DNA of 64,000 nucleotides from a virus (taxonomy: Duplodnaviria > Caudoviricetes). Position numbers and translations under genes: made by a program. This document shows, piece by piece, positions 7,610 through 51,725 of this stretch (its first letter is position 1; each line of letters starts with the position of its first letter). Below the pieces are notes generated by a model. That model was not told the origin of the DNA. It saw only the letters and a program-made list of their open reading frames with translations, and did not search any database. The DNA is taken from positions 1 through 64,000 of the IMG/VR virus record IMGVR_UViG_3300048581_000044. One strand, given 5' to 3'.

Positions 7610-7902
7610 ACACACCAGCTATTCGCCAGTGCTTGCACAACGCGCGGGCGATTCTCTTAACCGCCTTGATCCTGGAAGCAATCCCAGGCGGCATGTTTTT
7701 CGCCGCGGTCAATTGTATCGCAGAGCGGCTAGATAACGCCCTGCCCGTGCCGGGAGCGCTGATTACAGTCGAGCTGATTTGCCTTTACGTGCTTATCGCG
7801 ATTGCCACAGGCGCCTTGCTCGGCCTAGCGCAGGTTCTTTATCAGCTGAATCGCTTGGTTAGCGAGGCGCCTGAAAGCGAGCAAGACTCACTCTATATAT
7901 AG
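7606..7902 (+). CDS. Two-TM membrane protein
   Basis: Two hydrophobic segments; ATGA overlap with the upstream gene. Confidence 0.6.
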   Translation: MNTPAIRQCLHNARAILLTALILEAIPGGMFFAAVNCIAERLDNALPVPGALITVELICLYVLIAIATGALLGLAQVLYQLNRLVSEAPESEQDSLYI

Positions 7903-41115: not shown

Positions 41116-43005
41116 ATGCTTCTTAACTTTGACCTTTCGGGTGCCGAGTGGAACGTGGTCGCTTATCTTTCCCAAGACCCAGGGATGCAAGCTGTTGTGC
41201 GCTCTGGGAAGTCTCCCCACATTGTCACGGGGGCCAAGATCAGCGGGCTACCTGAAGACGTTGTAAAGAAAGAAGCGTCAATTATCGGCGACCTGAATGA
41301 CCCAATTCATATCTCAGAGCTTCGGCAGACAGAGCTTAAAGGACTTTTGGACGGTGCTAAGTTCCTGCCGCGCACGATGTCTATTCGTCAAGCCGGTAAG
41401 AAGTGCCTTGTAGCTGGAACAGAAGTTCTCACACCTGAAGGTTGGGTAAAGATAGAGGATGTAAAGCAAGGCGATAAAGTCCTACAATGGGATGCTGGAG
41501 AGCTTAGCTTTGTAGAGACAAGCGCTATTTATAAATATGCTCTAGCTCCAGCTGAGGAGCTTATAGCTTTAAAAGGCCGACATTTTAGCCAGACTGTGAC
41601 AGCAAACCACCGCTTGCCACTAAAGCATTTGAAAAAATACTTCTTCGAAGAATGTACCGCCGCCACACTGCCTGAAAACTGTACGTATGGCATACCGTTA
41701 TCTGGAAACCTAAACAATAAAACAAGCCTATTAAACGCCTACGAGACACGCTTACTTGTCGCTATTCAAGCAGACGGCGTTATCAACCCCTACGGACAGG
41801 TAGTGTTCAAATTTGCAAAGGAAAGAAAACGCGATAGGCTTGATAGTATTTTAAGCGCTCTCGGAATCAGCGTAACGATCACTAAGGGAAACCAGTTTCA
41901 CATCCCACGCGGTCCTATAATTGACAAGCTTGTGAAGTTGCTAACAGGTGGTTTTGTCTACGAACGTCAGGAACGCCACGCTGTAAAAACCCTTCGTCAT
42001 GGAGCGCTTTTAAAAAATTACGGCCTTTATCTTTTACAGCTTGGTATTACAGAACTACAAGCTTTTGTTAATGAGCAACAATTCTGGGACGGGCACAACC
42101 GAAATGGTGGTGCTTGCTTTCAGGCTTTTACGACAAACAAGAACAACGCTGACTGGATACAGACCATAAGTCATCTGTGTGGGTGTCGTTGTACTTTAAT
42201 AAGTCGCGAACCAACTGGGGGATTTGGAAAAAAGACTCTTCATTGGTTGAGCATTGGAAAGGCTGACACTACCACAACCTCAGTGCTAAAACGTAGTAGC
42301 GTAAAGGCCGATAGCGTTTACTGTTTGACAGTTCCAAGTGGATTCTTCATGGTTAGATATGAAAGTATCATAAGTATAAGCGGTAATAGCAATCACTCGC
42401 TGAACTACAGACTTGGTTATCGAACATTCGCACAGCGCAATGAAATGGATGAAAAGGAAGCGCAAAAGATCGTAAATCTATACCGCGGTGAACGCATCGG
42501 GTCAACTATCCGCGGTGGTGCCTACCCCGAGCTAAATCACTGGTACGACCGGATCGATGAGCAAATCCGCAAGACCCGTACCATGACAAACTGCTTTGGG
42601 CGGAAGATGTATTTCATGGGCCAAATGGGCGATGATCTCTTTCGAGAAGCCACCGCGGCCGTCCCGCAGTCAACCGTCGTGGATATCACCAATCGTGCGA
42701 TGCCTTTGATGCTTAATGACAGCTCTCCAGCTTTTGAGCCTGCGAAATTGCTCGCACAGGTTCACGATTCAACACTTATCGATTATGTCTCGATGGAATT
42801 TCACGCCATGGCGCGGTTTGTTATAAAAATGGGACTCGATTATCTTAGCCCAACGCTCGATTATGGCGAGCCTTTTAAGCTTGGCGTTGATCTTAAAGCG
42901 GGTGTTAATTGGGGCGAGAGTATGAAAAAGATAGACATGACTCCTGATGAAGATGTCATGGCTGAACGCTTAAAACTATGTTGGAAAGCTTTTAGCCTCA
43001 TGTGA
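41116..43005 (+). CDS. polA: Family A DNA polymerase C-terminal half (motifs A, B, C), intein-containing
   Basis: Motif A NFDLSGAE; spliced motif B RQAGKK|SNHSLNY; motif C QVHDS. Confidence 0.92.
   Translation: MLLNFDLSGAEWNVVAYLSQDPGMQAVVRSGKSPHIVTGAKISGLPEDVVKKEASIIGDLNDPIHISELRQTELKGLLDGAKFLPRTMSIRQAGKKCLVAGTEVLTPEGWVKIEDVKQGDKVLQWDAGELSFVETSAIYKYALAPAEELIALKGRHFSQTVTANHRLPLKHLKKYFFEECTAATLPENCTYGIPLSGNLNNKTSLLNAYETRLLVAIQADGVINPYGQVVFKFAKERKRDRLDSILSALGISVTITKGNQFHIPRGPIIDKLVKLLTGGFVYERQERHAVKTLRHGALLKNYGLYLLQLGITELQAFVNEQQFWDGHNRNGGACFQAFTTNKNNADWIQTISHLCGCRCTLISREPTGGFGKKTLHWLSIGKADTTTTSVLKRSSVKADSVYCLTVPSGFFMVRYESIISISGNSNHSLNYRLGYRTFAQRNEMDEKEAQKIVNLYRGERIGSTIRGGAYPELNHWYDRIDEQIRKTRTMTNCFGRKMYFMGQMGDDLFREATAAVPQSTVVDITNRAMPLMLNDSSPAFEPAKLLAQVHDSTLIDYVSMEFHAMARFVIKMGLDYLSPTLDYGEPFKLGVDLKAGVNWGESMKKIDMTPDEDVMAERLKLCWKAFSLM
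41404..42387 (+). mobile_element. 328-aa intein with LAGLIDADG homing endonuclease
   Basis: CLVAGTEVLTPEG...VTANH...LLVAIQADG...FWDG...YCLTVPSGFFMVR...ISGN|S. Confidence 0.9.
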
Positions 43006-43251
43006 TAGCATCTGTCACCGCCTCAAGCAGCCATTTCGTTTCGATTCGGTTGGCGCTGGCGTTGATCTGGAGAAAGGAACTGAGGGATGATCCTGGGTCA
43101 CTCATGTCATTTTCCTTCCGGTTGCGGCGCGCTCGCCAGAGCGGTCACAAACTCCTGCGCCCTGGATACCATGTCACCGACGCTGCTCATGACTTACCTC
43201 TACGTTTGTACTGCGAATATGGCTGAGGGCAACCCCCGAACAGCGCATCCA

Positions 43252-43518
43252 CTATTGCTTTTTTACAGGTTCCTGGTCAGATATTTGAGCACTGTATTGC
43301 GCCATTAGTTCAGTGTATAGATTCGTAATACCAGCCCGATTCGCGTCGGCAAGGGTGATCCTACCCACACCGTCGAGAATAATAGCAGCATCAGATCGTT
43401 TCATTTTCAGTGTAATGACCTGATCGGCTCTTGGACGCGGTTGTGGAACAAGTATATCGGCAGAAAATGCAGGTACTATGACCATCAGTATGAAGGCCAC
43501 GCAATACGCTTTTTTCAT
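43252..43518 (-). CDS. Signal-peptide protein resembling small fibre-associated chaperones
   Basis: MKKAYCVAFILMVIVPAFSA-D leader; helical C-terminus ITLKMKRSDAAIILDGVG. Confidence 0.55.
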   Translation of the reverse strand: MKKAYCVAFILMVIVPAFSADILVPQPRPRADQVITLKMKRSDAAIILDGVGRITLADANRAGITNLYTELMAQYSAQISDQEPVKKQ

Positions 43519-43796
43519 TTTGGGCATACCTCTTTCCTGCTTGGTTTCGGAAAATGGGGGAATAGAAAAAACGCGTTATACGCGCGAACTGGCTTGGAGA
43601 GTTTGCATTCCAAAACGATTTTGTACGACCCGTCCGCCGTATAATCTCGGATTTGCACAACCGAAGTTGTCAAATCTGCTGAGATGCTATCAGCAGGCAC
43701 CGCGTAAACCAGACCGGCGCTATGCTGCGGCGGCAGAGTTTCTGCACTTGCGGCAGCGCCCACGATCATTGCCGCAATTACCGCTATGATCCGCAT
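43515..43796 (-). CDS. Small exported protein
   Basis: MRIIAVIAAMIVGAAASA-E leader; 2 Cys. Confidence 0.6.
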   Translation of the reverse strand: MRIIAVIAAMIVGAAASAETLPPQHSAGLVYAVPADSISADLTTSVVQIRDYTADGSYKIVLECKLSKPVRAYNAFFLFPHFPKPSRKEVCPK

Positions 43797-43806
43797 TGAT
43801 GGCCTC

Positions 43807-44538
43807 CTAACAGGTTGTTGTTGTTCCCATATAAACGGCTTTTGTAGTGCCATCTATACAAAGCATATTTTTTCCAGTTCCAGTTGTTATCGTTGGAAAA
43901 TATATCAATTGTGTGGCTTCAATACGAATGGCGGCTGTCCCGTTCGTCCCAAAGACCAGATTTGCCGCTGAAGGTTCGCTGCGGATGAATGCGGGATTTG
44001 TATATTGTGCACTACCTGCCGCGGTGTAGAAATCTACTTCTGCATTATACCCAGAATTTGTTACATCAAGACCAACAATGGTCGCAGCGTTTGGCTTTTT
44101 AATCGTCGCGGCTACCCCAACAATGGGGGCTTCCCCAACGGACAAAGAGGCTAACATCGTATTTGCGTCAGGAGTCCATCGCACAGCAAGGGTCCCGCCG
44201 TTTGCCCCGGTTCCTGAAACAGTACCAGTATTACCTGTGCGTAATTCCACAGTGCTACCGGTACCTGTGCCCGTCCCGCGGGGAAAAGCCACCTGGATAT
44301 TGGTGGCATTAACGTTGGCGGTGCTGCCGCCTGATAGGACATATGGAAATTTCCAAATAATGGTTGTGGGTGGTGCGGTATCGCCAGTCGCATCGGCGTG
44401 AGGTCCGATGTTCCAGGTATTTGGGGACCAAACGGCGCCCACACCTGCCGCCCCGCTGGGTGTGCTACCAAAATATATCTGTGCATTTGCCGGAATAAAT
44501 AGTAGAGCAAAAATTCCGGCCACGAGTGTGCGTTTCAT
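43807..44538 (-). CDS. Fibre-like Gly/Thr-rich protein with signal peptide
   Basis: MKRTLVAGIFALLFIPANA-Q leader; FGTNGTAAIRI fibre-type motif; C-terminal Cys pair. Confidence 0.65.
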   Translation of the reverse strand: MKRTLVAGIFALLFIPANAQIYFGSTPSGAAGVGAVWSPNTWNIGPHADATGDTAPPTTIIWKFPYVLSGGSTANVNATNIQVAFPRGTGTGTGSTVELRTGNTGTVSGTGANGGTLAVRWTPDANTMLASLSVGEAPIVGVAATIKKPNAATIVGLDVTNSGYNAEVDFYTAAGSAQYTNPAFIRSEPSAANLVFGTNGTAAIRIEATQLIYFPTITTGTGKNMLCIDGTTKAVYMGTTTTC

Positions 44539-44539
44539 A

Positions 44540-46273
44540 TTAATTGCCTCCCACGTTGTCGTTCATACCCGTCACTGTGATCGTCGGTCTCGGCCATGAC
44601 CCATTGTTTGCGTCGGGAGTCAAAAACGACGAAACACCACCCACGTTAGCATCGTAGATGCGGTAGTCAACGGTGTACACTCCACCCGTTTGGATGTTTA
44701 GCGGTAGAGGAAGCGGCACAGAGACACATTTTGTTTCGCCGGGATTAACGCCAGTGGCGAGTGGAAACTCATACACTCCTGGGGATACTGTCGAGCCTGC
44801 CGCTGAAAAAACAAAAGATGCCATTACTTTCGAGTTACTGTCAGCAACGAACGCAGCGCATGCCCGAACGCTAATCTCGCCCAAAGGCGGAGTTAGCCCT
44901 AGACTGGCGGGAGAATAGGCCGAGGCATTAGCTGGCACGCGAAAGGTAACCGCTCCATATGATGTCGCGGTCTTTGGTATCGTAAGCCCACTAACGAGAT
45001 CAGCGATCAGATTTTCGCGCGCAACGAGTGAATTGTTGTTCAGCAGGAATAGTGGAAACCCTCCGCTAATTATTACTGTTCCGGCAGCCACGCCTGCCCC
45101 TGTGATTGCCTGTCCCGATTGCAGTTGACCGTAAGCTACGTCTGATGTCGACGCATGCAAGTAGTTTCCCGAGTTAGTACACCCAGAAACGTCGCCTATG
45201 CACCCCACAAATTGAGCTGTTCCTGCTATTTTTTCGCGCACAATCCCAGGAACAGCCGCAGTCGTTTGCGCGCCGATTCCTATAGTTGCAGGGTCTGCCG
45301 AAGTCGCAGAACCACGCCGCACATAAGCCTGATCGCCACTTTCAGGCACGGCAATGTAAACTTCTTGGGCGGCCCATGTTGACGGATACGCTGCAAAATA
45401 GGTCTGCTGATCACAGCGATCCTTGGACCAGTAGGGGCGGTCCGGTAAAAGCAAACAGACGCGACCAGACTTTTGATCTAGTGTAAACGCTACTGAGAAT
45501 AATGTGTTTTCAGGGATCATGGTGTCGAGAATGCCAGATAAATTTGCATCCCCCAGCAAGGCACCCGTATTATCAATGTACTCTGCGATGTAAGACGTAT
45601 TTTGTGTAACAAGATGCACCGCCGCACACGGCAGTGAAGGAGGACCGGTCCATGTTCCGTAGTTCTGACACCATGCCACAAGATCAACCGATGTTGAGGC
45701 GCTAGTTCCTGCGGTAGGCTGCAACAAAAAATCACCACTTACGTAAGTGACTAGACCGGGCAACTGTTCGATGACGTGCAAAGCATGTTGATGTGTATCA
45801 GCGTAACGCTGGCAGCTAAGTAGCCCTAGGTATGACCCGACCGCACCAGAAAAAATAGGGCTGCATGTCCCCTTTGTACTTATCGTAAGGGCGTTGCCCG
45901 CGTAGCTAGTCGTTGGCAGCGCACCATCAACTGGAGTAGACCATCCATCTGCGGCCCCCGGAAACATGCCACCAATAAACAGCGCTGTATTATTCTTAAC
46001 CCACCGCCCCGTCGCCGGAGCGTCCGCGAACGCGAGCACGGTCACGCCGTCGATGGTTGCCGTGGAGTCGGCAATTGCGTCGTAGCAGCCTGCATAACCG
46101 GTCTCTATGATGCACACGTGCTTGTACGTGCCGGTGAGCGCGGTTGCCTTTGTCATCGTGGAAAGTGACGCGCGGGTTGGATACGCGCTATCGGAATACG
46201 ACGGGTACGCCGAATTTGCCAGCGCGGCGCCAGAGAGCATCACGATAGCGGCAAGGTAACGGAGGAATTTCAT
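44540..46273 (-). CDS. Large beta-rich fibre/adhesin-like protein with signal peptide and 12 Cys
   Basis: MKFLRYLAAIVMLSGAALA-N leader; six sequentially adjacent Cys pairs. Confidence 0.65.
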   Translation of the reverse strand: MKFLRYLAAIVMLSGAALANSAYPSYSDSAYPTRASLSTMTKATALTGTYKHVCIIETGYAGCYDAIADSTATIDGVTVLAFADAPATGRWVKNNTALFIGGMFPGAADGWSTPVDGALPTTSYAGNALTISTKGTCSPIFSGAVGSYLGLLSCQRYADTHQHALHVIEQLPGLVTYVSGDFLLQPTAGTSASTSVDLVAWCQNYGTWTGPPSLPCAAVHLVTQNTSYIAEYIDNTGALLGDANLSGILDTMIPENTLFSVAFTLDQKSGRVCLLLPDRPYWSKDRCDQQTYFAAYPSTWAAQEVYIAVPESGDQAYVRRGSATSADPATIGIGAQTTAAVPGIVREKIAGTAQFVGCIGDVSGCTNSGNYLHASTSDVAYGQLQSGQAITGAGVAAGTVIISGGFPLFLLNNNSLVARENLIADLVSGLTIPKTATSYGAVTFRVPANASAYSPASLGLTPPLGEISVRACAAFVADSNSKVMASFVFSAAGSTVSPGVYEFPLATGVNPGETKCVSVPLPLPLNIQTGGVYTVDYRIYDANVGGVSSFLTPDANNGSWPRPTITVTGMNDNVGGN

Positions 46274-46373
46274 TGAAGCACCTCGTAAACATTCTGTGGA
46301 AGTAACCCGCGGTCCAATTCGCGCTGGACGCGGGCGACGATTTCAGCCTTTGTGCTCTTGCCGTCGTGGGCCA

Positions 46374-47000
46374 TCATGGAACACCCAAAACCCTGTCGAT
46401 TGTTCCGTCCATCTCAATGTCAAGAAATCCAGCACCACCAGCATCGTTCTGGTTGATAACATAAGCGACAACGGTTGTTCCATCTGATGTGATGATGCAA
46501 TAATTTGTGTCAGCGCTTATTTTTTCGATCCGTACACGCAAGACTGCGGCCGAAGACCCGAGTGCTGGCGGCGCGGTGAATGTGACGTTTCCTGCCGTGC
46601 TATCACATCTGACAATGCCATCGCTCGACTGGATTGTTTTGTTTCCAATAGAGTACGTAACTACCCTAATAGCTAGTTTAAGCGCTTTTCGTACCCAGCA
46701 ACTCGTCGTCGCCACGCCTGTAGCAGCAATATAAGGGTCTCCAGCGGTTACACCGGGCGCAGCGGCAGTGCCAGGGCAAGCAACGTTATATGGTGCATAA
46801 GATGCGCTCAAACTTGCGCTATACCAATCGTATCGAACACCGGCTACTTCGGCGCTAAGCGTTAACGAACTCGCCGCACCGAGATCAGCCATATCTTGCA
46901 AGGTGCCGATTTTTACAATTGCGCCCTGGGTTCCAGCTAGGGATGGAATCGCCCACGCAACAAAGGCAAAGGCAGCTAGCGTGAAAGCTTTTATGTTCAT
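46374..47000 (-). CDS. Fibre-module protein with signal peptide
   Basis: MNIKAFTLAAFAFVAWAIPSLA-G leader; C-terminal DSTAGNVTFTAP...RIEKISADTN tail-fibre module; 4 Cys. Confidence 0.65.
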   Translation of the reverse strand: MNIKAFTLAAFAFVAWAIPSLAGTQGAIVKIGTLQDMADLGAASSLTLSAEVAGVRYDWYSASLSASYAPYNVACPGTAAAPGVTAGDPYIAATGVATTSCWVRKALKLAIRVVTYSIGNKTIQSSDGIVRCDSTAGNVTFTAPPALGSSAAVLRVRIEKISADTNYCIITSDGTTVVAYVINQNDAGGAGFLDIEMDGTIDRVLGVP

Positions 47001-47025: not shown

Positions 47026-47451
47026 TCATCCGAACTTGAAGTGGATGCGGATATAATCGACGATTACGCTGACAACGTACAAGAATCCGGTCCCGAGCAG
47101 ACCAACCACAGCCCATCCTGCGCCCTTCGCCATAGAGATATCACCGCTCAAGATATCAACCGTGGCCTTGATTGCGTCGATCTTCACGTCTTGCTCGCCA
47201 AGATGCATCTGACGGTCCTTTGTCTGGTCATCGAACCGCTTATCGTTCGCGGCGCGCTCGGCTTCGAACAGGTCCAGGATTCTCTGAAAATCCACCCGGT
47301 TGTGTTCCGAGTGATCTTTGCGGATGGTCTTTTCTTCGTCAATCTCGCGGCGGAACCCTTGCATCTCGGCAAGGATCGCGCCATTACCCGATAGAACCTC
47401 ACGCAGGCTGCTTTCGATGCGACGAAGATTTGAGTTTTCGGATTCGGTCAT
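47026..47451 (-). CDS. Coiled-coil protein with C-terminal TM (XhlA/holin-like)
   Basis: ATG 47451 in ATGA overlap; C-terminal hydrophobic helix. Confidence 0.55.
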   Translation of the reverse strand: MTESENSNLRRIESSLREVLSGNGAILAEMQGFRREIDEEKTIRKDHSEHNRVDFQRILDLFEAERAANDKRFDDQTKDRQMHLGEQDVKIDAIKATVDILSGDISMAKGAGWAVVGLLGTGFLYVVSVIVDYIRIHFKFG

Positions 47452-47753
47452 TTCGCCACTGCGGTAGGTTTGACATCGCGACACTTGGCGACGACGGTTT
47501 CGAGAAGGTCAAGCCGCTTAGCGCGCAACCGCGCCCCGGAGTCCAATAGCTTTTCGAAGTCTGCCAGTTCGGCCGCGGATTTGAGCGCGTCCAGCGTATC
47601 GGGATAGGTTGGTGCCGCGGTGACAGTATCTGGGACACATGACACTGGCGTTGGAACGTCGGCTGTTACGGTGTTAACAACAGGCTCGGATGGCTTGTCG
47701 GCACACGCGGAAAGCAAGAGGGCAAGTGTAGCCATGGCGATACATCGGTTCAT
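47448..47753 (-). CDS. Outer-membrane spanin (Rz1-like lipoprotein)
   Basis: Lipobox LLSA-C; Pro-rich TPVSCVP. Confidence 0.75.
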   Translation of the reverse strand: MNRCIAMATLALLLSACADKPSEPVVNTVTADVPTPVSCVPDTVTAAPTYPDTLDALKSAAELADFEKLLDSGARLRAKRLDLLETVVAKCRDVKPTAVAK

Positions 47754-48190
47754 CGGCTTCGATCCTCTATGATCTGTGCTCGCGCGGATATGGCCCGCTC
47801 ACATTCATTCGCTCCAGCTGGTTTGGCTGCTGCTAGAACCGCTAAGCGTGTCAGTAACGCCTCTCTTTCGGTTTGGTTCTTGGCTATAACATCGGCTAGA
47901 GCTGCCCGCAGCACGTCGCCCTGCTTCCCAAGGGCGAGAATTTTGGTATTTTGCTTTGCCACAGCAGTTTCGAGGCCGTCAACGTTCCCGTGGCACTGTC
48001 CGAGACTATCCCGTGCCGTCTTGAGCTGCGCTTTCAGCCCCGGCGCTCCCCACCAAAGAATCTGATAGCCGTTAATCTCGAACGCTTGGTAGAGCGCAAC
48101 GGGCGTGAAAATAACACCGCACAAGGCTGCGACGGCCACAACAGCAACCGCGATTTTGTTTGCTGCCCACGAGGCTATGGTTGCCCACAT
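47750..48190 (-). CDS. Inner-membrane spanin (Rz-like)
   Basis: N-terminal TM, coiled coil, C-terminal Cys. Confidence 0.7.
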   Translation of the reverse strand: MWATIASWAANKIAVAVVAVAALCGVIFTPVALYQAFEINGYQILWWGAPGLKAQLKTARDSLGQCHGNVDGLETAVAKQNTKILALGKQGDVLRAALADVIAKNQTEREALLTRLAVLAAAKPAGANECERAISARAQIIEDRSR

Positions 48191-48486
48191 TACGTCGGTC
48201 CTCCTGCCTTTACTGCCGTGTGTTTATCCCACGATCCAAAGGCCGCTGTTCCAGCAAACACGCTTGAGATTAGCCCTACAGCCCATACGGCTGAATCTGG
48301 AGAGTTAATGTACTGCGCGATGCGTACCAGCACATATGCCAAAGCAAGCCCAATCATCAACAAGCCGATAGGGCGGGCTAACACCGAGATCGCAAGCACA
48401 GTCTCCCGCAACCATTTCGTCTCAATCTGAGACGCGCTGGCATTGATTTGGAGAAACGAATTAAGGGCTTGGCCGGGATCACTCAT
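48190..48486 (-). CDS. Holin-like two-TM protein
   Basis: Two TM helices within the lysis cassette. Confidence 0.6.
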   Translation of the reverse strand: MSDPGQALNSFLQINASASQIETKWLRETVLAISVLARPIGLLMIGLALAYVLVRIAQYINSPDSAVWAVGLISSVFAGTAAFGSWDKHTAVKAGGPT

Positions 48487-48501
48487 CTCATTACCTTAGC
48501 T

Positions 48502-48778: not shown

Positions 48779-49207
48779 TCAGGACTTTAAAGCTGCGGCA
48801 ACACCAGCCGCAAGATCAGAATCTTCAAAAAACCACCCGCCACATTCGTGCGTGGCGATGGCTTTAGCAAGCGCTTCAAGCACTGGCGCATCGTCTAGCT
48901 TAAGCGGCCAGTCTGGCGCGCGATGACAAGCATCAGACACGGCCTTGATATAAGCGTCTGTGTTGTTCTCGCTTGGAGGTGCCCACCGGCCGATGATCTG
49001 GCGTATCGTGTTAAGCCCATGAAGCCGATGATAGTTACACAGCACGGTTGCAAGCGCGCGGAAGCCCCACATTGGCGACTTGAACACAGCGAAGCGTTGT
49101 TCGTCCAACTGTTCCGGCGACATTTCGTGCGGATCGGCAAGTCCCTGCCATTGAACGCCGCGTTCGAGATTTCCAGGATTAGAATTTCGCAAAGCCCTAA
49201 CCGTCAT
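48779..49207 (-). CDS. Endolysin, lysozyme-like (P5/virion muramidase type)
   Basis: RNSNPGNL, FAVF...GFRA, TIRQIIGRWAPPSENNTDAY. Confidence 0.82.
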   Translation of the reverse strand: MTVRALRNSNPGNLERGVQWQGLADPHEMSPEQLDEQRFAVFKSPMWGFRALATVLCNYHRLHGLNTIRQIIGRWAPPSENNTDAYIKAVSDACHRAPDWPLKLDDAPVLEALAKAIATHECGGWFFEDSDLAAGVAAALKS

Positions 49208-49815
49208 GACGCGCTCCTCAAGCTAATAACACTCGTGCCATTCACGCGGATCGCCAGCGTCGGGACCTGTCCTCCATTTACCGGAGCGCTAATCGCATCG
49301 ATTAGATTCACCTGCGTCGTATTCGACGACGACACACAATCGTAAACCGCTATCGTGTTTCCCGTTGCGTCATTTACAACATCACGCATCGGCCAGCACA
49401 CAAAAGGAACCAAAGAGCTGCCTAGCGTTCTCGGAACAGTAATCGAACCCGCTCCGCTAGTCGCGTTGATCACAAGCACATAGCCGTAATCAGCAGCTAC
49501 AACCACATGACCAAGTGCTACAGCTTTTTCAGGAGGCGCCGATACGGGAATAAAAACACCGTTCGTCTCATTAAAAGTCCCGACTAAAATCCAAGCTGTA
49601 TCGGCTTGGTTTCTGCATTTAAGCGTATTCGTGCTTAAATCGTGCCAATAAATCCCTGCTACGGAGGCCAGCCCTGTCGAAGCAGCTGTCGGTGCAGAAG
49701 TCCCAGCTTGAAAGGTCGAGGTAGCTTGAAAGGCAGTATTTAGGTTAGCCGCTAAAGTCGTCCCTGGGTAGGGAGGCGGAGAAGACGTTGGAAACTGCAC
49801 CTTGCCTTGACTCAT
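49204..49815 (-). CDS. Tail fibre-associated protein
   Basis: FQAGTSAP...WHDLSTNTLKCRN...WI; fibre module at the C-terminus. Confidence 0.65.
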   Translation of the reverse strand: MSQGKVQFPTSSPPPYPGTTLAANLNTAFQATSTFQAGTSAPTAASTGLASVAGIYWHDLSTNTLKCRNQADTAWILVGTFNETNGVFIPVSAPPEKAVALGHVVVAADYGYVLVINATSGAGSITVPRTLGSSLVPFVCWPMRDVVNDATGNTIAVYDCVSSSNTTQVNLIDAISAPVNGGQVPTLAIRVNGTSVISLRSAS

Positions 49816-49883: not shown

Positions 49884-51725
49884 TTAAAAACCAAAGAAGG
49901 TCATTATTGCCAGCCCCGGCATTAGCCCTGTGTTAGCAAGCGATGCAAATCTGAACGTCGCAACACTTCCAGGCCCAACCAAGTTTAGCGGCGGACAGCC
50001 TACACAATTCTGTGAACCATCTTGGTTGGTACAGCTCACTGTAGCGATACCTGTCCAGGAAGTTCCAGCAGGAGACGGGCTGCTTAGCGTCACATCGATG
50101 CCATTGCCACCATTCTGTGCAATGCCTGAAACCCCAAAGGACTTAACTAATGTAATCGATCCGCCGCTGTATTGACAAATAGCAAACGCCTTTGCCGAAC
50201 ACTGATAAGCGAACACTGATTCAGGCACACCTTGCAAGATAAAAGCCGTGCCGTTGTAAATAACAGTAAAGATACTATCTGGCGGAAGCTCTGCAATAAA
50301 TAACGGAGAGCCGTTGCCATGCGTAACAGCTGTAGCCGCGAGGCTGCCAACTTTTAAAGTAACAGCCCCGGAATTGCCGAAACTAGCATTCTTCTGTACA
50401 CGGATCGGTACGCCAAGCAGCGCTGCTAGTGACGCTGGTGTGGGCGAGAGCGTTATTGCCAGAGCGTTAGACGTGCCAGTGTCAACAGCATAGTTTCCAG
50501 ACTGTTTTTGCACGTATGAGAGACTAGCTAGGCCAGAAACTGCGTTGTTTACATACGTCGTAGAGGCCAAGCCTGAAACGGCATTGTTTACATAGATTGT
50601 AGAAGCCAGACCAGAAACAGCCGCGCTTATCTGACTGTTGACGTAGCTTACAGAGGCCAGACCGCTAACAGCTGCGCTGATTTGGCTATTGACGTAGGAT
50701 ATTGAAGCCAGTCCAGAGACAGCTGCGGAAATCTGACTATTGACATACGTTGTAGAGGCCAAGCCTGAAACAGCAGCAGAAATTTGGCTATTCACGTAGC
50801 TCGTTGAAGCCAAGCCGCTGATTGCAGAAGCAACATCTTGCGTGATTCCAAATTGTGAGCTTCCAACAACGCGCCATATACCGTTAGAGGCAAGGAGCAA
50901 AACCGTTGTGCCTTGTGGAATCGTGAAAGACCCAACGCCTGTACTTGGGGAGGCGACTGTCCCAAAGATAACATCAGCGCCATTGGCCTGTGTTGTAACA
51001 ACACCCGATGTCGCAGAAGCCAGTGCAAACAGCGATCCGTTTACGAGCGCGACAACTGGAAGATTGAATGTCGTGGCGCTTGTTGCTTGTAAAAGCGTTC
51101 CAGCGTTTCCGCTAGCAAGCGTCAGCGTTCCTGAAACGTTGAACGGTTGGAGCGTGTTATTAGCCGATAGCACTGTTTGATAAGCCGTATTCGGCGCAGG
51201 AAGCGTCGAGGCCCCAGCAGCTAACGCAAACCGACAAAGCTCAAACGTTGTTTGATTGTCTGGCGCCGTTGTCGAAGCGCCAAGAGTTATCGAGTTCACC
51301 AAAGACGCATAGGCCGTGTACGGAACAAAGCTAGGATTATAATCAGGATGCCCTTGCGGCGGCCCAATCACCTGGAAAGGGTCTTGTTGGATCGCCGTCA
51401 GCTGCGCGATCAGATAAGCTGTCACGCTCCCTGAACCCGGTACGACGCTCGTGAAATCAGTCGTATAGGTCTGGGTATCAGCGTTGGATTGCGTGCCGTG
51501 TGCGCGTGCAAGCTGCCCATTGCTGAACAGCACGCCAAAGGGCGCAGGCAAAACCGACGTGAGAACCAAGCCTGTGCTCGTATAGGAAGCGCTCTGTACT
51601 GCCACCAAGCCGCTCAGGAGCGCACTCTTTGCCAACTCCGCCGTATCAGCCTCCAACATTGCACAGGCAACGTTAAAAGCCCCGGCGTTGACATATTGCT
51701 CCGGTGCGAAGTTTGGCGTCTTCAC
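49884..51725 (-). CDS. Baseplate-anchored tail fibre protein
   Basis: Follows the baseplate wedge genes; coiled-coil repeats; YAVDTGTSNAL module. Confidence 0.8.
   Translation of the reverse strand: MKTPNFAPEQYVNAGAFNVACAMLEADTAELAKSALLSGLVAVQSASYTSTGLVLTSVLPAPFGVLFSNGQLARAHGTQSNADTQTYTTDFTSVVPGSGSVTAYLIAQLTAIQQDPFQVIGPPQGHPDYNPSFVPYTAYASLVNSITLGASTTAPDNQTTFELCRFALAAGASTLPAPNTAYQTVLSANNTLQPFNVSGTLTLASGNAGTLLQATSATTFNLPVVALVNGSLFALASATSGVVTTQANGADVIFGTVASPSTGVGSFTIPQGTTVLLLASNGIWRVVGSSQFGITQDVASAISGLASTSYVNSQISAAVSGLASTTYVNSQISAAVSGLASISYVNSQISAAVSGLASVSYVNSQISAAVSGLASTIYVNNAVSGLASTTYVNNAVSGLASLSYVQKQSGNYAVDTGTSNALAITLSPTPASLAALLGVPIRVQKNASFGNSGAVTLKVGSLAATAVTHGNGSPLFIAELPPDSIFTVIYNGTAFILQGVPESVFAYQCSAKAFAICQYSGGSITLVKSFGVSGIAQNGGNGIDVTLSSPSPAGTSWTGIATVSCTNQDGSQNCVGCPPLNLVGPGSVATFRFASLANTGLMPGLAIMTFFGF
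50520..50822 (-). repeat. Tail fibre peptide repeats SGLASxxYVN(SQISAAV/NAV)
   Basis: Four 17-aa units and two 13-aa units, with divergent synonymous codons. Confidence 0.85.

Follow-up and report, generated by a model that had tools for sequence, protein, structure and literature searches.

Phages are known to carry moron genes for exported envelope proteins, among them Bor and Lom of lambda, Llp of T5, and Cor of phi80, N15, and HK022. Leader-bearing proteins of Porphyromonas phages have been read as envelope modifiers (Matrishin et al., 2023; PMC10367356), as have the envelope proteins described in huge phages (preprint 10.64898/2026.10.24.761521). On the bacterial side, a Tat-exported protein with a tailspike fold trims exopolysaccharide (PMC7949094). 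Here, we analyzed the first 64 kb (64,000 nucleotides; hereafter, the window, to which all coordinates refer unless stated otherwise) of IMG/VR record IMGVR_UViG_3300048581_000044, an 89,137 bp record of an uncultured peat phage with a CheckV completeness of ∼95%. The window contains a cluster of five consecutive minus-strand genes, A208, B577, C243, D93, and E88 (43252-47000), each of which begins with a predicted signal peptide.

A first-pass annotation, made from the DNA letters, had proposed that the five products are fiber-like virion subunits that are exported, oxidatively folded, and docked onto particles at lysis, or, alternatively, that they form a cell-surface receptor decoy or exclusion layer derived from fiber genes. 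We give about an even chance to a different reading, in which the five proteins are exported, disulfide-folded accessory cargo acting in the host envelope.

Results

Five consecutive genes encode proteins with candidate Sec leaders

To find leaders, we used a rule-based test (charge of the n-region, a 9-residue hydrophobic core, and the −3/−1 rule) on 128 open reading frames (ORFs) genome-wide. Eleven were flagged: the five cluster genes, the o-spanin gene of the lysis cassette, two genes at 74-76 kb of the record, two small ORFs, and one false internal start in F613, the anchored fiber gene. With 10 of the 128 counted as flagged, a run of at least five flagged ORFs has a probability of 1.2e-4, and the row of classic leaders described by the first-pass annotation was thus confirmed by the test. 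The leaders are 17–22 aa long. All five carry 1–3 Lys/Arg within the first 5 residues, then an uncharged stretch of 14–18 residues that includes the c-region, and small residues at −3/−1; none has a lipobox, unlike the neighboring o-spanin. A basic n-region, an uncharged core of roughly 7–15 residues, a total length of about 17–25, suitable −3/−1 residues, and no lipobox Cys at +1 are together what is expected of Sec/signal peptidase I substrates, as which the five are predicted. Because the uncharged stretch spans only 14–18 residues, stable membrane anchoring is unlikely. By the same test the baseplate genes and F613 have no leader, again in agreement with the earlier annotation.

The five ORFs are real genes. 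Each is preceded by a Shine-Dalgarno site, and by a codon model for which 30 long genes of the source genome served as the training set, every one of them had a positive coding score in its own frame and negative scores in the other five, with values inside the range of the genome. The genes are closely packed: 25 nt separate the upstream gene X152 from A208, 100 nt A208 from B577, 1 nt B577 from C243, and 10 nt C243 from D93, and the stop of D93 overlaps the start of E88 (ATGA). The D93 start was set at the inner ATG, which follows an AGGAGG site by 7 nt and the C243 stop by 10 nt. We did not find a sigma-70-like promoter upstream of A208 or B577, which for this phage is a weak test, nor a convincing terminator between the cluster and the lysis genes. 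As no promoter- or terminator-like site lies between them, late co-transcription with the lysis genes is the simplest inference. In the A208–B577 gap (46274-46373), we observed a GC-rich hairpin of 12 bp that has a weak U-tail and a folding energy of z = −0.7 against shuffled controls; RNA folding of two intergenic gaps gave nothing beyond chance.

Cysteines are even in number and closely paired

The mature parts of A208, B577, C243, D93, and E88 contain 4, 12, 2, 2, and 0 Cys, respectively, as had been counted before. The arrangement of the 12 Cys of B577 as six neighboring pairs also stood: all within-pair gaps (7–44 residues) are shorter than all between-pair gaps (48–107), and random placement achieves this in 0.2% of cases (P = 0.002). 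In C243, the Cys pair sits at the C terminus, where one Cys is the final residue. Across the genome, an even Cys count with close pairs was observed in six of six Cys-containing leader proteins, including S264 and S412, the products of the two flagged genes at 74-76 kb. The leaderless structural proteins have 0–4 Cys, widely spaced and of mixed parity, with the exception of the C-terminal tip of F613.

In that tip (49884-50200), we observed five close Cys, at residues 509, 517, 565, 574, and 577; they could be a metal site or form disulfides after release.

The predicted export and oxidative folding of the cluster proteins are well supported by the sequence features, and this part of the earlier proposal fits both the leaders and the even, close-paired Cys.

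Fiber likeness lies in composition

Three of the five proteins had been described as carrying tail-fiber-type sequence. At the level of composition, and only there, this is so: A208, B577, and C243 contain 46–55% G/A/S/T/N and 9–15% charged residues, compared with 35% and 21% in the rest of the proteome (∼2 standard deviations away), and they match the fiber and baseplate proteins of the same phage. D93 and E88 are of ordinary composition. No sequence similarity to fibers accompanied this. We compared the five proteins with the fibers, the baseplate proteins, and the proteins of the second leader cluster by BLASTP, and A208 with a fiber profile (N-terminal 350 residues, built from nine relatives) by hhalign. 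The module said to be related to the fiber genes at 49.2-51.7 kb did not emerge, with BLASTP E ≥ 0.4 and an hhalign probability of 0.2%. Its sole remnant is a six-residue TxT[LA]PP likeness (fiber consensus TxTLPP, TFTAPP in A208). A resemblance of E88 to small fiber chaperones was likewise not recovered, as no library gave a match.

The cluster proteins are orphans, apart from the head of B577

Searches of Pfam (even at E ≤ 10), PHROGs, NCBIfam, and PADLOC left all five proteins without a match, and hence without one to the described exclusion and defense families in the last three. For A208, B577, and C243, PDB sequences gave no match, and tblastn against 50,697 phage records gave none at E ≤ 1; blastn with the whole cluster region was also without a match. 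An exhaustive phmmer search of 1.84e9 representatives with C243 returned only C243 itself, and A208 was likewise its own sole match among 5.8e9 proteins.

For B577, the large protein searches returned two partial metagenomic relatives. P0002 (491 aa; NCBI MDE2106867.1, from a bin labeled Patescibacteria group bacterium) is 66% identical over B577 residues 1–110 and has its own leader. P0003 (754 aa, a Logan protein) is 73% identical over residues 29–94, and there the domain is set further in. The C-terminal parts of both are unrelated to B577 and matched nothing in Pfam, PHROGs, or PDB; an impression of a beta-helix in the C-terminal part of P0003 was not borne out by these libraries. As only the N-domain is common to B577, P0002, and P0003, B577 has a conserved ∼70-residue, 2-Cys head and an exchangeable body. 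The accessions of the two relatives point to no more than a submission batch in common with a related baseplate protein. When patterns of B577 or of its N-domain were scanned against viral, metagenome, and genome collections, nothing was found.

AlphaFold2 without an alignment gave a mean predicted local distance difference test (pLDDT) score of 34 for B577 and 38 for A208, and the mostly or entirely beta structure that it predicted, all-beta for A208, is of low confidence. In the ESM Atlas, the feature scores of A208 were 0.94 (184 of 256 features) for a 174-aa viral cluster and 0.90 for a cluster in which 84% of the members carry PF27114 Phage_tail_beta, with template modeling (TM) scores of ∼0.5; judged by the calibration of the tool, both are leads only. 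The best score of B577 (0.83) is at noise level.

Other classes of exported protein were considered and set aside: pilus systems of the chaperone-usher or another type (no family match to an usher or a chaperone), outer-membrane barrels (no C-terminal aromatic residue), and lipoproteins (no lipobox). Inspected by eye, the C-termini of the cluster proteins showed no hydrophobic sorting signal.

The cassette is private to the source phage

We next compared related phages through baseplate J, for which we found 159 relatives at E ≤ 1e-10, the best 120 of them 44–70% identical; several lie on contigs of ∼90–110 kb. A profile built from these relatives led to 23 IMG/VR loci, while single-protein searches with baseplate J and with the polymerase half gave none. 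Baseplate J and the next baseplate protein are kept in nearly all of the closer loci, and the first 180–340 residues of F613 in most loci that reach that far, with divergence beyond. At E ≤ 1e-4, no counterpart of the five proteins was detected in any of the 23 loci. When every same-strand N-terminus downstream of the fiber gene was viewed directly in these loci, we observed no leaders other than those of spanins and holins. As judged from these loci, the five-gene cassette is private to the source phage, apart from near-identical contigs.

Recombination scars flank the cluster

The late genes run on the minus strand from the baseplate through two fiber genes, the lysis cassette, and X152 to the five leader genes (Table 1). 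Between the endolysin and the i-spanin lie two genes for small membrane proteins (holin-like genes), and the cluster follows endolysin, holin-like genes, i-spanin, o-spanin, and X152, so that its placement directly behind the lysis cassette was correctly described. It ends at 43252, opposite the split DNA polymerase on the plus strand, whose stop codon is at 43005; the cluster thus sits where late operon and replication genes converge. A Hint/intein-like insertion in the second polymerase half (41116-43005) was seen in the translation only.

Table 1. Positions of the cluster genes, the flanking gene fragments, and the late genes of the window
Feature	Position	Strand	Details
A208	46374-47000	−	208-aa precursor; 22-aa predicted leader, SLA/G; mature 186 aa; 4 Cys in two pairs
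B577	44540-46273	−	577-aa precursor; 19-aa predicted leader, ALA/N; 12 Cys in six sequential pairs
C243	43807-44538	−	243-aa precursor; 19-aa predicted leader, ANA/Q; Gly/Thr-rich body
D93	43515-43796	−	93-aa precursor; 18-aa predicted leader, ASA/E; mature 75 aa; one Cys pair
E88	43252-43518	−	88-aa precursor; 17-20-aa predicted leader, VPA/F or less typical FSA/D; mature ∼68 aa; 0 Cys
Truncated 5′ fragment of holin-class gene	43107-43190	−	27 codons; own ribosome-binding site
Truncated 5′ fragment of second holin-class gene	42998-43105	−	35 codons; one copy of direct repeat D1
X152	47026-47484	−	coiled coil and C-terminal membrane anchor; 25 nt ahead of A208
o-spanin lipoprotein	47448-47753	−	Rz-like spanin PHROG match; lipobox
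i-spanin	47750-48190	−	Rz-like spanin PHROG match
Holin-like gene	48190-48486	−	98 aa; functional
Endolysin	48779-49207	−	opens lysis cassette; phrog_873, E = 2e-46
F203	49204-49815	−	second leaderless fiber gene
F613	49884-51725	−	leaderless anchored fiber
Baseplate J/gp6-like	baseplate, ahead of the fiber genes	−	phrog_6, E = 7.5e-32

The 247-nt gap after E88 contains two truncated 5′ fragments of holin-class genes, the second of which runs into the 3′ end of the opposite-strand polymerase gene. In the first, 43160-43112 matches positions 7690-7738 of another phage locus, L027, at 90% (blastn); the match covers codons 13–28 of a 115-aa holin-like gene present in L027 and L028, and in L027 a gene of this type occupies the slot before the i-spanin. 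The second fragment carries the lower copy of a 96-nt direct repeat, D1 (43016-43111 versus 48397-48492; 74% identity, spacing 5381). The upper copy corresponds to the first ∼30 codons of the 98-aa holin-like gene plus 6 upstream bases, and 22 of the 30 codons specify the same residue in both copies. The two copies bracket the block.

Because 5′ remnants of holin genes follow E88, we conclude that the five-gene block was formerly just upstream of holin-type genes, between the fibers and the lysis genes, and that recombination moved it, a history reconstructed from the scars. The GC content at third codon positions (GC3) of A208, C243, and E88 is 0.38–0.44, compared with 0.54 ± 0.08 for the genome, and this lower GC3 fits a foreign origin.

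The other side of the cluster has probably been exchanged as well. The region at 47072-48207 is 86% identical in DNA over 1136 nt to L027 7984-9119, a shared block that starts 17 nt upstream of the i-spanin, includes the o-spanin, and stops shortly before X152 ends. X152 is 90% identical to the L027 protein, while the baseplate J proteins of the two phages are only 27% identical. Since such DNA identity is shared with a phage of distant baseplate J, the spanin/X152 block is best regarded as an exchangeable lysis module of which X152 is a part; the exchange looks recent, and X152 may be an undescribed lysis component. The late operon of L027 stops right after X152, and for this reason we place the five leader genes outside the predicted module. 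Taken together, the cluster is, in our reconstruction, a recombined add-on at a module boundary that shares with morons its absence from relatives and the signs of acquisition. A promoter and terminator of its own, also typical of morons, were not found, although for the promoter the test is weak.

Leaders elsewhere in the genome and in a distant phage

A second leader pair, S264 and S412, lies on the minus strand outside the window (74131-76179 of the record, equivalent to L025:10131-12179), immediately behind the gene for the major head protein. A match of S412 to NCBIfam NF048003 (phage head spike fiber, GTA_spike_fiber) scored 41.2 bits with E = 2.4e-10 by hmmscan and 44.4 bits in the genome search, above the cut-off of 36; Pfam and PDB gave no support for S412, and none of the five cluster proteins matches NF048003. 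S412 has 2 Cys, forming one close pair, and S264 has 4. Five related records, four of them with a completeness of 93% or more, contain no counterpart of either protein.

In L021 (13127-19040, plus strand), from a distant high-GC phage, both genes of the fiber slot (1358 aa and 606 aa) have canonical leaders and a common C-terminal motif. The 606-aa protein has weak pectate-lyase-like (just under the Pfam cut-off), tail-protein, and pre-neck-appendage matches. Compared with phages that have leaders on their primary spikes, the source phage makes a weaker case for periplasm-matured virion parts.

Discussion

If the five proteins are accessory cargo, recombination would have brought in the cassette and placed it at the 3′ end of the late transcription unit, behind the structural and lysis genes. 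Its products would be made late, exported by Sec, cleaved by signal peptidase I, and folded with disulfides in the periplasm. A208, B577, and C243 would be large, beta-rich, low-charge proteins of adhesin- or fiber-like build and D93 and E88 small periplasmic proteins, and none of the five would belong to the conserved virion of the phage group. In the envelope, the proteins could mask or bind a surface receptor or glycan, thereby excluding other phages or preventing progeny from adhering to debris, or they could trim polysaccharide; D93 and E88 might be partners or lysis modulators. The envelope role, the export itself, and the late co-transcription are what we infer. We favor accessory cargo because the phage has a complete leaderless baseplate and fiber set in common with its relatives, because the five genes are private, scarred, and beyond the lysis genes, and because two of the five are small and ordinary. 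The published reading of leader-bearing phage proteins as envelope modifiers (PMC10367356; preprint 10.64898/2026.10.24.761521) agrees with this, as does the exopolysaccharide-trimming bacterial protein with a tailspike fold (PMC7949094). The receptor decoy or exclusion layer offered earlier as an alternative comes near to this reading, except that its derivation from fiber genes lacks support.

Several points weigh against accessory cargo. For none of the five proteins did we see homology to a family that acts in exclusion, blocks receptors, or works on glycans. The exclusion proteins known so far are small lipoproteins or membrane proteins that occur singly, unlike a set of five genes of which one encodes 577 aa. 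Proteins expressed late would have little time to work in the envelope before the cell lyses. Paired Cys alone do not prove a periplasmic location, because the leaderless F613 also has a Cys-rich tip. Receptor-binding genes are typically private and swapped, so absence from relatives is compatible with a role in the virion. Three observations point in that direction: the conserved-head, variable-tail layout of B577 is typical of receptor-binding proteins, A208 has an unverified language-model likeness to small phage tail proteins, and the leader-bearing S412 has a head-spike-fiber domain in the same genome.

The corresponding alternative is that the large proteins are extra receptor-binding fibers or spikes, folded in the periplasm and docked when holin and endolysin open the cell. 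Late docking would be biochemically possible, as P22 tailspikes, T4 fibers, and Hoc/Soc can be added to particles in vitro. The fiber-like composition of A208, B577, and C243, the swapped C-terminal parts behind the B577 N-domain, and the A208 leads in the ESM Atlas agree with such a role. So do the former position of the block directly upstream of the lysis cassette, the usual fiber slot, as read from the holin remnants, the leader on S412 after the capsid gene, and the canonical leaders on both L021 fiber-slot genes. We nevertheless consider exported appendages unlikely. The phage already has a leaderless anchored fiber, whose N terminus is kept in relatives, and a second leaderless fiber; the five proteins have no detectable similarity to any fiber, those of the phage itself included; and no docking domain is common to relatives with the same baseplate. 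D93 and E88 are small proteins with an ordinary composition, and in the literature we found no tailed phage that builds virion parts in the periplasm. Docking onto virions, the second half of the original proposal, is thus without support, because the lysis cassette intervenes, fiber homology is lacking, the genes are absent from the 23 loci, and the block is an add-on bounded by scars. A broader version, in which both clusters (A208, B577, and C243 in one, S412 in the other) supply host-recognition parts that are folded in the periplasm, stabilized by disulfides, and joined to cytoplasm-built particles at cell opening, strikes us as similarly doubtful, but the head-spike-fiber domain on the leader protein S412 prevents its dismissal.

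That the five genes extend the lysis system, with exported products that would aid the breach of an unusual envelope or set its timing, we regard as rather improbable. Here, D93 and E88 would act like the T4 periplasmic antiholin RI, to which they are similar in size as small periplasmic-type proteins, and the large proteins would loosen outer layers such as an S-layer or thick polysaccharide. The cluster directly follows the holin, spanin, and X152 genes and is apparently transcribed together with them, and DNA of lysis genes lies on both sides of the block. However, L027 uses the same spanin/X152 block without the five genes, no relative has them, no lysis family matches them, and large Cys-rich beta proteins are unlike known lysis factors.

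Finally, it is very unlikely that there is no export at all, with N-termini that are uncleaved tethers or chance hydrophobic starts on cytoplasmic proteins, or small ORFs that are not genes: the leaders were called by rules, the five proteins are all orphans, and confidence is low in the structure models of both A208 and B577, but five canonical n-h-c leaders in a row (P ∼1e-4), hydrophobic stretches too short for stable anchors, even and paired Cys that fit an oxidizing compartment, in-frame-only coding scores with a ribosome-binding site per gene, and the leader retained by P0002 despite its divergence all argue otherwise.

If the cluster proteins mask receptors or remodel glycans, they would be a new class of phage tools that control adsorption in soil communities; if they join particles, they would be an exception to the rule that tailed-phage virions are built wholly in the cytoplasm. 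The scars show that such a cassette has traveled at the lysis-gene junction, where the lysis block itself has been swapped between unrelated phages.

Comparison with known systems

Like the receptor-binding proteins of tail fibers and tailspikes, B577 combines a conserved N-terminal part, comparable to an anchor, with an exchangeable C-terminal part, and the composition is also similar. The cluster proteins differ in having a predicted cleavable-type leader, in lying outside the tail module, and in lacking similarity to any fiber family or anchor. S412 resembles the head spike fiber family NF048003 above the cut-off and follows the capsid gene; it departs from that family by its Sec-type leader.

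Bor, Lom, Llp, and Cor share with the five proteins secretion signals, a position next to tail-fiber or lysis genes, absence from close relatives, and action in the host envelope, the last being proposed for the five. Those four are single small lipoproteins or beta-barrels with known targets, whereas the source phage has an operon of five genes for leader proteins of soluble type, without a lipobox and without homology; three of the proteins are large, with paired Cys and a fiber-like composition.

WceF of Pantoea stewartii is a precedent for a fiber- or tailspike-like protein exported for work on envelope polysaccharide and not for virion building (PMC7949094). It has a Tat signal, is chromosomally encoded in an exopolysaccharide cluster, and has a solved beta-helix fold; A208, B577, and C243 have Sec-type leaders and no established fold or homology. 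The signal-peptide proteins without an assigned function in Porphyromonas phages (PMC10367356) and in huge phages (10.64898/2026.10.24.761521), read as host-surface modifiers, are alike in kind. They come from other hosts and phage groups, have no sequence relation to the cluster, and are not described as having a five-gene run, Cys pairing, or fiber-like bodies. Overall, phages were known to export a few small envelope proteins; what appears to be new here is a five-gene set of large, disulfide-paired, fiber-like leader proteins, and a late set of this size represents a different scale of investment.

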